A DNA stretch of 63,976 nt, counting the filler, from Sandaracinaceae bacterium (lineage in GTDB: Bacteria > Myxococcota_A > Polyangia > Polyangiales > JADJQN01): NCBI GenBank assembly GCA_947483975.1. It is 5 parts of 5 records of this genome, joined end to end, with 100 filler letters (N's around TTAATTAATTAA, not from the genome) between each part and the next. Parts side by side here need not be neighbours in the genome. Positions count along the whole stretch, not along the records: positions 40,135 to 53,304 come from CANKOL010000121.1; positions 53,405 to 63,976 come from CANKOL010000167.1; 3 more parts are not named here. One strand, written 5' to 3'. A program made the position numbers. Positions 50,501-53,500 of the stretch are shown in pieces (the first letter of the stretch is position 1; each line of letters opens with the position of its first letter).

Positions 50501-53500
50501 CTCGGCGACGACGTGGAATTTGTCCGGGTTGACGCTGACGTCGTGCTCCCAGAGAAAGCCGAGCGCCTGAAAGAGCTCGCCGCGCGCGCGCTCGATGAAG
50601 AGCAAGAAGCGGACGTTGTGGAGGATGTTGAGGGCGTCGAGATCATCGAAATAGACGCGCTGCACGGAGCGGTACGGGGACTTCATCGTGCGGGAGGTGT
50701 AGCCGTGTTCTTCTTGAGCTGCAGCAGGAGCGGCGACTCGAGGTACGTCTTCGCGGCGCTCATGCCGGAGACGCCGCCCGACACGATGAAGGTCATGAAC
50801 TCCGCGCCGTCGGCGTCGATCGTCTCGACGCGCTCGCGCGGCACGACGAGGACGTTGCCCGCGAAATTGTAGGACTGCGGCAGGTACACGGCGACGTGCC
50901 CGGCGAGGCGCGCGTCGTCGAAGCGCTCGCACGTCACGAAGCCGAGCATCCGCACGATGCCCGCGTCGTCGAGGCGCACGAGCACGGGCTTGTCGAAGGT
51001 GCGCTTGTCGCCGACGAACGCGCCCATCAGGTCCTTGATCGACGTGAAGAGCAGCCGCACGACGGGGAGCTTGCGCAGGAGCTGCTCGATCCATTCGATC
51101 ACGCGCCGCCCGACGACGTTGGAGGCGATCCAGCCGATGCCGGCGATGACGAGCACGGCGAGCCCGATGCCGAGCCCGGGGATGGGCAGCGGCAGGAGGG
51201 AGTCCATCTTCTGCAGCGTGAACCACACGACGTAGACGGTCGTGACGGTCGGCACGAGCACCAAACAGCCCTTGAGAAAGTTGTCGACGAGCCGCTTCAT
51301 GGAGCCTCCGCGCGGGCAGCATAGCCGCGCTTCGCCGGGCTCGTGACAGGGGAGGGCGCGCGACGCACGCTTGCTCGCGTGAAGAGACAGCCCCCCGGCG
51401 CGCCCGGCGACGAGATCGAGGTCTACATCCGCACGTACACGTCGCTGCTGCGCTCGAGCGGCGAGGTGCCGGTGCGCGCGTTCGAGGAGGCGCACGAGTT
51501 CAGCGACGCGAGCCTGCACTCGGGGGCGCGCGAGGCTCGCCCCGATGTGGCCGCGTTCGCGTACGCGGCGGCGCGGCTCCCCGCGCAGATCGCGTTCGCG
51601 CGGATCGTCGTGATGGGGCAGTCGCACGAGCAGTTCGCGGCGGCGGGGTTCGACGTGCGCGGGGAGGACTGGAAGCGCGTGACGACGCGTGGGCGGCGCC
51701 GCCCGCTGCGCTGGGACGGCGTGGGCTCGCTGGCGGCGTTCGTCACGAGCAAGAGCGACATCGACGACCTCGTGCCGATCCTGACCGCGTATCAGATCGA
51801 GTGGAACAAGATGCACGCGCTGCTCGGCGGCGACGACCTCGGGCGCGCGATGGCCGCCGCCCCGGCAGACGCGCCCCTCGCGCCGGACGCTGCGGCGCTC
51901 GCCGGGCCGCTCGACCTCACGCCCGATCAGCTGAGCACGCTGCTCGCGGCGCTCGGCGCGGAGTGGCCCGCCGCGCTCCGAGAGATCGCGCGCCGCCCGT
52001 CGGACCTCGTCGTGCGCCTGCTCAACGCGGGCTTCATCGAGTATCAGCGCGCGGCGATGCGCTGGTGGAGCGGCATCGAGCCCGCGTATCTGCGCAGCAC
52101 GCGCCCGCGGCGCGCGCCGGTGTACTTCGTCTCGTCGAACACGCACTCGCTCGTCAACGTCGTCGGCGGCTACGCGCTCGCGCATCGGCAAGAGATCCTC
52201 GACTTCGCGCAGCGTCGAAATCCGGAGGGGCTCGCGGAGCCGCTCGAGCGCGCCATCGCGACGGGCGACGAGCACGAGGCTGCGAACATCGCGTATTACC
52301 TGCTGCGCGCGTTTCTCCACGACGACGACGGACACGTCCAAGAGCGCCTCGCGACGGTGCAGCGCTTCGACTCCGAGAGCGGCATCTCGTCGATCGAGAG
52401 CCCCGGGCGCATCGACGTCGGCGCGCAGTTGGTGCGGCTCTCCTCGCTGCGCGAGGACCGCCTCGACCCGCGCGCGCGAGTGCCCGGGATGGCGCTGCTC
52501 GCCGAGAGCGACGCCGTGATCGTCAACATCGACTATCCGCTCGGCATGGCGGCTTATCACCACCTCTCGCGCGTCGCGCAGGGAGTCGGAGAGCTGCGCG
52601 GCGTGTACGTGATGGGCAAGGGCGCGACGCTCAACGGGCGCGTCGGCGACGTGATGATCGCGACCAACGTCTACGACGAGCACTCGAAGAACACGTACCT
52701 GTTCCGCAACTGCTTCACGGCGAGCGATCTGCAGCCGTTCTTGCGGCGCGGCACGGTGCTCGATCATCAGAAGGCGCTGACCGTGCGCGGCACTTTTCAG
52801 CAGAACCGCGCGTATCTCGGCGCGTTCTACGCCGACGGCTACACCGTGCTCGAGATGGAGGCGGGGCCGTATTTGTCCGCGATCTACGAGGTCGTCAGCC
52901 CGGACCGGCATCCCAACGACGAGATCTCGCACCTCTCGAGCCGCACGCCGTTCGACGTCGGGATTCTGCACTACGCGTCGGATACACCGTATTCGCGGCG
53001 GCAGAGCCTGCTCTCGAAGAGCCTCAGCTACTTCGGCGTGGAGGCGACGTACGCGTGCACGAACGCGATCCTGCGCCGCATCCTGCAGCAAGAAGTGGCG
53101 CGGCTGAGCGCGCGCTGACGTTCACGCGCGCGGGTGAACTTGGTAGTCTCCGCGGTCATGGTGCGTCGTGACGAAAGCAACCCGAAGCCTCCGGGCGGAG
53201 GAGCGCGATCACGCTGCGTCTTTCCAGCGGGTGCAAATCCCGCCTCGGTAAGCGTCGGAGCGCCGAGTAGCAGGCCCCAGGTGTCCGGGAGAGATCCTGG
53301 CATCNNNNNNNNNNNNNNNNNNNNNNNNNNNNNNNNNNNNNNNNNNNNTTAATTAATTAANNNNNNNNNNNNNNNNNNNNNNNNNNNNNNNNNNNNNNNN
53401 NNNNCGGCGGGCACGGCGAGGTGCGGCGCCCGGGTGAGCCCGCCGTCCCCGTCGCGCTCGGCGCGCCGCACCACTCGGACGACGCCGGCAGCGCGCCGCT

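Follow-up and report, generated by a model that had tools for sequence, protein, structure and literature searches.

Our results indicate that in ~9–12% of the genes of this Sandaracinaceae genome, and in ~19% of its likely operon-first genes, a sigma-70-type −10 hexamer ends 6–9 nt before the start codon, an arrangement that very probably gives rise to leaderless mRNAs. Start codons with such a box are also the sites behind which copies of a group II intron are found, one of them in the window, by which we mean the whole 63,976-nt stretch of DNA that was analysed.

Genes were called with our own gene finder, which relies on codon log-odds only and contains no RBS, promoter or upstream-motif model. 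It returned 4289 genes, of which 3856 had an in-frame stop upstream inside the contig and 3837 had a usable start candidate. When the start of maximal coding score was taken for these 3837 genes, TANNNT was found 92, 99, 97 and 86 times at spacings (k) of 6, 7, 8 and 9 nt, 48 and 30 times at k=10 and 11, and 5–18 times at each spacing from 0 to 5 and from 12 to 40. The motif thus lies 6–9 nt before the start of 374 of 3837 genes against 39 expected (background mean of 9.7 per spacing over four spacings), which reproduces with a motif-blind caller the approximately tenfold enrichment reported in the initial annotation. All 14996 candidate starts taken together gave 145, 177, 144 and 134 occurrences at k=6–9, 78 and 46 at k=10 and 11, and 10–44 at k=0–5 and 12–40, and the starts of the longest ORFs gave 90, 49, 62 and 87 at k=6–9. 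As a control, these regions were scanned for start-type triplets in the two remaining frames, where no peak appeared (28, 25, 20 and 20; 11, 4, 6 and 13); only start-type triplets in frame with the gene produce one. Some candidate start with a box at 6–9 nt exists in 588 of 3836 genes (15%), hereafter the class. The class start coincides with the motif-blind start in 373 of these 588 genes and differs from it in the other 215 (116 upstream, 99 downstream). After background subtraction, 9–12% of genes carry a box, in agreement with the 464 genes (12%) counted earlier, and the commonest class hexamers (TACGCT 48, TAGGCT 34, TATGCT 32, TATCCT 30, TACCGT 29 and TACCCT 29) overlap those listed at that time (TACGCT, TACCCT, TATCCT and TAGGCT).

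Judged by their sequence context, the hexamers of the class appear to behave as sigma-70 −10 boxes. The TG of an extended −10 element accompanies 178 of the 588 class hexamers compared with 440 of the 6207 TANNNT in the genome (7%); the class therefore holds 40% of all 440 TGNTANNNT in the genome. A G at position −2 is present in 354 of 588 cases (60%) versus 36% of all genomic TANNNT. The DNA 22–24 nt upstream of the hexamer is rich in T, which reaches 30% at −23 against a base frequency of 14.5%. A weak −35 signal is detected at a spacing of 17 nt, with TTG at the −35 position in 15% of the class versus 6%. Neither the TG, nor the upstream T-richness, nor the −35 TTG was used in picking the hexamers.

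We also analyzed the gene context of the class. Shine-Dalgarno (SD) cores (GGAG, GAGG or AGGA at −20 to −4) precede 5.8% of class genes compared with 36% of the rest, a contrast that in part follows from the box itself taking up the SD window; the direction is that of the initial annotation, in which box genes mostly lacked a Shine-Dalgarno motif, though SD was defined differently there. In the remaining genes, GGAG peaks at spacings of 5–8 nt. The upstream neighbour is divergent for 50% of the class versus 31%, and co-directional within 20 nt for 6.3% versus 28%. The upstream neighbour is known for 558 class genes, of which 429 are operon-head proxies; this corresponds to 18.8% of the 2288 such proxies. 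Of the 1421 genes that have a co-directional neighbour no more than 60 nt away, 129 also carry a box, and some of these boxes may be chance matches or internal promoters. TTG starts are rare in the class (16 of 588 versus 233 of 3248), a scarcity that fits initiation with a purine. In several class genes the start is fixed by a protein domain: positions 1–42 of the NrdR zinc ribbon profile align with residues 1–42, and the Mur ligase and metallophosphoesterase domains begin at residue 2. Examples of box-bearing starts in the window are as follows:

5757..5774, plus strand: TAGAAT, 9 nt, ATG; start of tsaE, with the motif-blind start at a GTG 6 nt downstream
31033..31047, minus strand: TACAGT, 6 nt, ATG; start of a 237-aa ORF without Pfam family
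43048..43064, plus strand: TACATT, 8 nt, ATG; candidate start of a 460-aa ORF without Pfam family, 21 nt upstream of the motif-blind start
47270..47286, minus strand: TACAAT (47286-47281), 8 nt, GTG (47272-47270); start of a gene for a 415-aa AAA_14/DUF4143 ATPase, identical to the motif-blind start
57313..57328, plus strand: TACGCT, 7 nt, ATG; start of a 131-aa PilZ-domain gene
59401..59418, minus strand: TATCGT, 9 nt, GTG; start of a metallophosphoesterase gene, with the Pfam domain from residue 2

Comparison with related genomes suggests that the leaderless-type signal is common to the sampled members of the order. In a genome of the same genus, the box is kept in 9 of 10 orthologs despite divergent flanks, and in 8 of these it stands at the same codon. 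Across five relatives, which are related genomes and hence not independent, a box is retained in 12 of 22 orthologs when the gene belongs to the class and in 12 of 165 when it does not. In 200-kb samples of relatives run through the same pipeline, the box share was 17/130 in the same genus, 9/140 in the same family, and 13/162, 16/152 and 12/155 in three other families of the order. All five sampled members of the order show the peak, and among five samples from other families of the phylum just one does; the four without a peak gave 2/120, 3/97, 4/129 and 0/117 with the same script. For nrdR, whose start codon is fixed by the zinc ribbon, a box at 6–9 nt is found in 20 of 28 loci labelled Polyangiales, Sandaracinaceae or Myxococcales (17 at exactly 9 nt), with an SD core in 2, compared with a box in 5 of 49 and an SD core in 23 of 49 loci from other taxa.

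From the motif, its position, its promoter context, its operon position and its conservation, we infer where transcription begins and how the mRNAs are translated. The class would be served by a housekeeping sigma-70-type promoter (TAnnnT, in many cases with the TG of an extended −10 and a weak −35 element), with transcription beginning at, or 0–3 nt from, the A or G of ATG or GTG. This would leave no room for a Shine-Dalgarno leader on the mRNA, which would therefore have to be translated as a leaderless mRNA. In leaderless initiation, as known from cI and tetR in E. coli and from Mycobacterium and Deinococcus, the 70S ribosome and the initiator tRNA bind the 5′-terminal start codon. The remaining genes would use ordinary SD-led initiation. 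At spacings of 8–9 nt, the canonical distance of 6–7 nt would place the transcription start 1–3 nt before the codon, so that some mRNAs of the class may carry a very short leader instead of being strictly leaderless. The initial annotation had proposed a large class of probable leaderless mRNAs, a reading that promoter features, operon heads and ortholog conservation all favour. The sole RNA run found, a metatranscriptome in the form of contigs that contains 5% of the sampled words, gave 14 short pieces 90–99% alike on CANKOL010000121.1 that come from a relative and carry no information on starts.

The boxes could be real promoters while translation often starts at a downstream codon, in which case the mRNAs would be leadered and the class largely an effect of start assignment. 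The 215 class starts that differ from the motif-blind start are compatible with this possibility, as is the difficulty of calling starts in DNA of 71% G+C. However, the peak appears only in the gene's frame, the 373 shared starts mark the onset of coding potential, the domain-anchored N-termini of NrdR, Mur ligase and metallophosphoesterase begin at the predicted codon, and orthologs have the box at the same aligned codon, all of which makes such an effect very improbable as the main explanation. A different view is that TAnnnT acts at the RNA level as a translation signal, either a non-SD ribosome-binding motif or an unstructured A/U patch in a G+C-rich leader, on mRNAs that are ordinarily leadered. 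This would be consistent with the motif sharing the SD window, in which GGAG peaks at 5–8 nt in other genes, and with the non-SD motifs at such a distance in other phyla that the passages of PMC6028130 on GeneMarkS-2 group B describe. Yet a translation signal has no need for a TG one base upstream or for T-richness 22–24 nt upstream, which matches sigma-70 spacing. The search pattern itself fixes positions 1, 2 and 6 of the hexamer and no others, and the bases at positions 3–5 vary, as they do in −10 boxes. Moreover, a ribosome-binding motif would serve internal genes too, against the operon-head enrichment. We consider this explanation highly improbable.

It is barely conceivable that base composition or gene calling produced the enrichment as an artefact devoid of biological meaning. 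The earlier counts did come from a gene caller whose start model can train on upstream motifs, but the signal was reproduced with a caller blind to upstream sequence and with all candidate starts, stands approximately tenfold above neighbouring spacings, vanishes in the two other frames, and is lacking, with the same script, in the four samples mentioned above from other families of the phylum. Leaderless expression from −10 boxes adjoining the start codon is the interpretation that we consider most likely.

A leaderless-type gene class is an already known kind. The initial annotation had suspected that it may be implicit in gene-finder models, and rightly so: it corresponds to the signal of GeneMarkS-2 group C as characterized in the relevant sections of Lomsadze et al. 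2018 (PMC6028130), where, for example in Mycobacterium tuberculosis, genes that come first in an operon have a Pribnow box 6–8 nt (about 10 nt) from their starts, the others rely on SD sites, and the leaderless share amounts to 25–50% of operons. This genome works like group C for a minority of its genes. It shares with the group, as described there, a localized −10 box at operon-first starts, SD sites for the rest and a high G+C content, and differs in lineage and in that 18.8% of operon-head proxies, as obtained with our own pipeline, carry the box compared with those 25–50%. In the part of the same survey that lists taxa (Supplemental Table S4), 11 of 15 Myxococcales fall into group A and 3 of 15 into group X, with none listed under C, while 10 of 123 Deltaproteobacteria belong to group C, 7 of them Bdellovibrionales. 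A TA-like signal that precedes gene starts by ~10 nt in bacterial genomes was described by Zheng et al. 2011 (PMC3160421), whose passage on delta-proteobacteria, which does not name those involved, gives leaderless genes in 8 of 33 genomes with a mean of 15.8% (range 5.7–20.6). The in-silico signature and its reading are the same as ours, and our 9–15% matches; one supplement of that article contains no myxobacterial names. Relative to the sections of that study dealing with this signal, the ortholog conservation, the extended −10 analysis and the intron link are added here. In Deinococcus deserti (PMC4007540) and Deinococcus-Thermus (PMC12340547), dRNA-seq is reported to show that 47–60% of mRNAs are leaderless, with a −10 region adjoining the ORF, as here, and AUG or GUG at the 5′ end; unlike in Deinococcus, the class described here is a minority and is predicted from sequence. 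In our literature search, no genome-wide account of leaderless genes turned up for myxobacteria or Polyangiales, and neither “leaderless” nor “UTR” occurs in the text of the M. xanthus Cappable-seq paper (PMC8844925).

These findings would extend substantial leaderless expression to an order of Myxococcota that the largest survey filed mostly as SD-dominant. For annotation, they mean that about a tenth of gene starts in Polyangiales, most genomes of which are MAGs, are marked by a promoter box and not by an SD site; a caller with SD-based training would be expected to misplace some such starts, and a group-C-type model is therefore advisable. For engineering, the design of promoter and start matters when myxobacterial gene clusters are expressed.

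The link to the group II intron is more novel than the leaderless class itself. The flagged site lies on CANKOL010000121.1 and is organized as follows:

53121..53126, plus strand: −35-like hexamer TTCACG, separated from the −10 box by a 17-nt spacer
53141..53149, plus strand: extended −10 element, TGg + TAGTCT (TG at 53141-53142, hexamer at 53144-53149)
53158..53160, plus strand: ATG start codon, 8 nt past the −10 box and last codon ahead of the intron
53161..53304, plus strand: first 144 nt of the group II intron (GTGCG...), open in the frame of the ATG and ending with the contig

The upstream gene (51343-53118) has its stop codon at 53116-53118, so that TTCACG covers the positions 3–8 nt beyond that stop. 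GTGCG at 53161 is a GUGYG-type 5′ end, and the Rfam group-II-D1D4-4 match at 53225-53304 scores 41.1 bits, being cut at its 3′ end, which is below the gathering score of 49. Full-length relatives match RF02003 (65–82 bits), RF02005 (55–62) and RF00029 (40.5–42.6), all above gathering, and RF00029 is detected at 42–44 bits at the start of four contigs of this genome. In three full-length copies, the intron-encoded protein contains RVT_1 at residues 294–510 and GIIM at 535–610, with no endonuclease domain found. The reverse-transcriptase (RT) frame is open from the host start codon.

Of 201 genomes sampled from the order, at least 23 contain the intron clade. Here, the 5′ end of the intron directly follows a box-bearing start codon in all six of six copies, which are identical, and in relatives a box lies 6–8 nt upstream at 38 of 45 junctions, which supports the earlier proposal that the start-codon intron invades the leaderless class. 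In total, TANNNT lies 6–8 nt upstream of the start codon at 44 of 51 such junctions from 23 genomes. These observations raise the possibility, which in our estimation is about evenly balanced, that this intron clade is specialised on leaderless genes: it would settle behind a start codon 6–8 nt after a −10 box, have its RT translated from the host start, supply a replacement ATG or GTG, and recognise its target as a functional unit. More precisely, translation of the RT would begin at the host start codon as the 5′-terminal AUG of a leaderless transcript and read through ~190 codons that overlap ribozyme domains D1–D3; the replacement ATG or GTG would be the last three bases of the intron itself, directly before codon 2 of the host gene; and promoter plus start codon, and not a fixed DNA sequence, would constitute the target. 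If true, this specialisation would provide natural evidence that such start codons are read without a leader, and the intron would be a mobile element whose target, and apparently own expression too, depend on the promoter-plus-start-codon unit.

A natural group II intron at start codons was not found in the literature searched, and the clade can be compared with known introns in several respects. The yeast mitochondrial group II introns aI1 and aI2 have an ORF that continues the frame of the upstream exon; RT frame and upstream exon are likewise continuous here, with the difference that this exon consists of one start codon. Bacterial class C introns recognise a structural target together with an IBS1 of very few nucleotides; only ~4–5 nt are similarly shared before the insertion site here, but unlike the class C hairpin, the common feature is a promoter −10 box at a variable distance of 6–8 nt. 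Bacillus cereus introns carry a 3′ extension, which is paralleled here by extra sequence past the Rfam D5–D6 match. All 44 copies of the 3′ end are alike up to ...TCTACCA followed by ATG or GTG, ~40 nt beyond the D5–D6 match, and thus end in ATG or GTG, unlike the usual group II AY end; none of the 44 has the usual AY shortly after domain VI. By our reading, the stretch beyond the D5–D6 match probably consists of the 3′ side of a long D6 stem and 8 further nt. An AGGA followed by 7 nt and ATG at the intron 3′ end was considered as an SD site, a notion weakened by the assignment of these purines to the 3′ strand of the D6 stem, which covaries in one lineage; the purines are absent in two lineages.

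Searches for the empty target and for further intron copies and flanks gave the following results. Orthologs of the upstream gene at the flagged insertion were found in two relatives (87% and 71% identity), with DNA behind them that is not syntenic. In this genome, the six 5′ flanks could not be paired with the four 3′ flanks, and a tblastx comparison of these flanks with the same-genus locus found nothing. For the 23 nt at the intron 5′ end, an exact pattern search of the genome contig collection gave no match, and the C4 exon-2 protein has only 29–32% matches in the family. Within genomes, the 5′ and 3′ ends occur in multiple identical copies, which argues for probable recent mobility. Over the first ~190 in-frame codons of the intron no selection at the protein level was seen, substitutions being spread evenly over codon positions to ~nt 600, and third-position bias in the intron ORF begins only from there; a conserved internal Met at codon 186–199 could be a second start.

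The initial annotation had reported an excess of the hexamer TANNNT, a putative −10 box, 6–9 nt before the start codons of 464 genes (12%) of this genome (G000; 5.29 Mb, 524 contigs, 71.1% G+C, 81% completeness), and had cautioned that these starts were gene-caller guesses. Because of this concern, we built a gene caller with no view of upstream sequence, based on stop-to-stop open reading frames, iteratively trained codon log-odds and a greedy non-overlapping choice. It returned 4289 genes, which together span 90% of the DNA, and TANNNT was counted at each spacing for the 3837 genes whose 5′ side is closed. 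Before starts of maximal coding score, the hexamer was found 92, 99, 97, 86, 48 and 30 times at spacings of 6, 7, 8, 9, 10 and 11 nt, respectively, versus 5–18 times at spacings of 0–5 and 12–40 nt; spacings 6–9 thus total 374 observed boxes against 39 expected from a background of 9.7 per spacing. For all 14996 in-frame ATG/GTG/TTG candidates the corresponding counts are 145, 177, 144, 134, 78 and 46, versus 10–44. No such peak at 6–9 nt appears for start-type triplets read from these regions in either of the two remaining frames (28/25/20/20 and 11/4/6/13), so the signal belongs to the codon at which the frame of the gene opens. The reported excess was thus reproduced with starts chosen blind to any motif, which argues against a gene-caller artefact. 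A candidate start with a box at 6–9 nt is present in 588 of 3836 genes (hereafter the class), coincides with the motif-blind start in 373 of these, and after background subtraction the class amounts to 9–12% of genes, matching the earlier count. TANNNT itself is rare in G000, with 6207 occurrences on both strands versus ~32,000 expected by arithmetic from base frequencies, and nearly a tenth of them precede a candidate start by 6–9 nt. GTG starts become less frequent in the class as spacing grows, from 62/143 at 6 nt to 69/177 at 7 nt, 30/141 at 8 nt and 18/127 at 9 nt.

Judging from features that played no part in its selection, namely an extended −10 and a T or TTG at the −35 position, the class hexamer reads as a promoter element. 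One base upstream of it, G is found in 354 and TG in 178 of the 588 class boxes, versus TG at 7% of all 6207 TANNNT, and class boxes include 40% of all 440 TGNTANNNT of G000. T reaches 24–30% at 22–24 nt upstream of the box, where a −35 TTG would stand given a spacer of 16–18 nt, and TTG occupies this position in 15% of the class versus 6%. The bases separating box and codon are nearly all G+C. Class genes act as operon heads, as seen from the orientation and spacing of their neighbours: the upstream neighbour is divergent for 50% of the class versus 31% and co-directional within 20 nt for 6.3% versus 28%, and class genes account for 429 (18.8%) of 2288 operon-head proxies versus 129 (9.1%) of the 1421 genes that closely follow a co-directional one. 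The claim that the class is poor in Shine-Dalgarno (SD) motifs also held, with SD cores in 5.8% of its members versus 36% of the remaining genes, which have a clear GGAG peak 5–8 nt from the start. TTG starts are scarce (16/588 versus 233/3248 other genes).

Relatives were analyzed with the same pipeline on 200-kb samples, each in 20-kb pieces.

Genes with a box 6–9 nt before the start codon in samples of relatives
Same genus: 17/130
Same family: 9/140
Other families of the order, three samples: 13/162, 16/152, 12/155
Other families of the phylum, four samples without a peak: 2/120, 3/97, 4/129, 0/117
Other family of the phylum, genome G242 (loci L177–L186; 65% G+C): 10/148

The trait looks order-wide rather than phylum-wide in these samples, which are small and come from kin that are not independent, the four without a peak being of 52–61% G+C. 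G242 shows a modest TANNNT peak at 6–8 nt (5/3/2 of 148 genes), and because of this peak in another family the trait may not be limited to the order. Among same-genus orthologs with aligned N-termini, the box is kept in 9 of 10 class genes, 8 of them at the same codon, while the sequence upstream of the box is no longer alignable. Five relatives pooled keep the box for 12 of 22 class genes versus 12 among 165 genes outside the class; clpB, two Ser/Thr kinases, an NtrC-type activator, a Mur ligase, tolB and nrdR are among the conserved cases. The cleanest test is nrdR, because its zinc ribbon begins at residue 1 (Pfam profile 1–42 on residues 1–42). In loci drawn from named public records, TANNNT lies 6–9 nt before the ATG of MKCPFC in 20 of 28 loci labelled Polyangiales, Sandaracinaceae, Myxococcales or similar, at exactly 9 nt in 17, with an SD core in only 2, versus a box in 5 of 49 and an SD core in 23 of 49 loci of other taxa, AGGAGG being present in Firmicutes. 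Five loci from metagenome-assembled genomes labelled Syntrophorhabdus, Deltaproteobacteria, Thermodesulfobacteriota and Bdellovibrionota (L231, L232, L238, L240, L247) have TACATT, TACCTT or TACACT 8–9 nt before the nrdR ATG and no SD core; nrdR mRNAs may lack a leader in further lineages.

The observation is thus confirmed, and its initial interpretation as a class of probable leaderless mRNAs is supported by sequence features and conservation. Translation of a 5′-terminal start codon by 70S ribosomes is established in other bacteria, and by analogy class mRNAs would be read in this way. At spacings of 8–9 nt the transcript could start 1–3 nt before the codon, and "leaderless" is therefore meant in its usual sense of 0–5 nt. 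The signature is that of GeneMarkS-2 group C, defined by a Pribnow box ~10 nt from starts (6–8 nt in M. tuberculosis; PMC6028130), although the share in G000 is lower than in classic group C. Supplemental Table S4 of that study places 11 of 15 Myxococcales in group A and 3 of 15 in group X, with group C in only 10 of 123 Deltaproteobacteria, 7 of them Bdellovibrionales. Of the 33 delta-proteobacterial genomes in Table 2 of Zheng et al. 2011 (PMC3160421), 8 are given as having leaderless genes (mean 15.8%), and pexR was recently suggested as possibly leaderless in myxobacteria (PMC12754779). Our literature search found no genome-wide treatment of leaderless genes for myxobacteria or Polyangiales; the organization itself is already known, and what is new is therefore the lineage, together with the conservation data.

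The part likely to surprise specialists is a family of introns. The window joins five contigs by N spacers, and its copy of the intron occupies the end of contig C121.

Features at the end of contig C121
40135–53304: contig C121, with the flagged site at its end
51343–53118: upstream gene, stop TGA at 53116–53118
53121–53126: TTCACG hexamer, then a 17-nt spacer
53141–53149: TGg and TAGTCT, then 8 nt
53158–53160: ATG start codon, GTGCG... directly behind it up to the contig end
53161–53304: 5′ part of a group II intron; the final 80 nt score 41 bits against Rfam group-II-D1D4-4, in a match truncated by the contig end and under the gathering score of 49

From the order of these elements and the Rfam match, the site reads as a sigma-70-like promoter abutting a start codon, with a group II intron starting right after the codon. 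Between the upstream stop and the −10 box, an inverted repeat (GTTCAC/GTGAAC, 8-nt loop, then TT; 53120–53139) overlaps the −35-like hexamer and may act as a weak terminator for the gene before it.

Intron ends and loci
5′ ends in G000: contigs C178, C160, C21, C44, C17 and window 53161–53304
3′ ends in G000: starts of contigs C4, C94, C103, C229
Loci of the intron clade in relatives: L038–L056 and L284–L351

The six 5′ ends, identical over 139–144 nt and each at a contig end, lie directly behind ATG (5) or GTG (1), with TANNNT 7–8 nt before the codon. The four 3′-end contigs open with an identical 148 nt holding D5-D6 (RF00029, 42–44 bits) and closing in ...TCTACCAATG, followed by four unrelated open reading frames. 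Full-length copies in relatives span 1.94–2.05 kb (one derivative has 893 nt), score above the Rfam gathering thresholds for both D1-D4 and D5-D6, and encode a protein with RVT_1 and GIIM and no endonuclease domain. Of 201 genomes sampled from the order, G000 among them, 45 match the 3′ end and 30 match the 5′ end; because only four candidates per genome were scored, copy numbers are minimum values.

Among the matches listed, 45 5′ junctions were placed in 22 relatives, leaving out five weak matches and also two ends whose upstream sequence was unusable. All lie behind ATG (36) or GTG (9). TANNNT precedes the codon by 6–8 nt in 38 and by 5 nt in 1, and the other 6 have none by the strict rule. 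With G000 included, 44 of 51 junctions have the box at 6–8 nt versus 8–15% of gene starts, which bears out the remark in the initial annotation that the intron invades start codons of this class. One additional weak match, the diverged copy L306 (G087:C27), lies behind AGG, which is not a start codon; at L302 (G010:C3), GTGCG is missing at the expected 5′ end, yet TAGTCT, 7 nt and GTG are present. For one interrupted gene, the ortholog in the same genus (76% identity) lacks the intron and provides an empty site, where the start is TACGCT, 7 nt, GTG. Targets of copies in the same genome have in common only the box, ~1–2 bases and the start codon, with 6, 7 or 8 nt between box and codon, which speaks against simple base-pairing with one contiguous target. 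The 5′ junction codon is GTG in 4/4 copies of G012 (L284, L312, L315, L317), and in G162 (L340–L343) the 3′ terminal codon is GTG in 4/4, yet the 5′ junction codon is ATG in 3/3; 5′ codon choice may track a lineage-specific exon-binding site.

The clade thus sits directly after start codons, with a reverse transcriptase frame open from the host start, and ends in a conserved ATG or GTG before host codon 2. All 44 3′ ends seen finish in ATG (38) or GTG (6) directly before diverging host sequence, this codon is constant within a genome, and an in-frame open stretch of ≥123 aa follows in 16 of 19 relatives' copies with a downstream flank. The frame from the host start codon is open for 606–672 codons in 7 of 8 full-length copies; over the first 570 nt it has zero stops in 9/9 copies, versus 3–7 in each other frame, and each of the five indels within the first 600 nt has a length divisible by three. 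The reverse transcriptase might nevertheless begin at a conventional internal start, since third-position substitution bias starts only near nt 600 and a Met is conserved at codon 186–199. We regard it as evenly balanced whether the intron would be expressed from the leaderless start codon of its host while giving it a replacement start codon; if it is, the intron would be independent natural evidence that class start codons are read without a leader. Two more RF00029 matches inside contigs of G000, C39:19982–20039 (−) and C37:16732–16803 (−), at 43.2 and 41.3 bits, differ from the start-codon intron ends.
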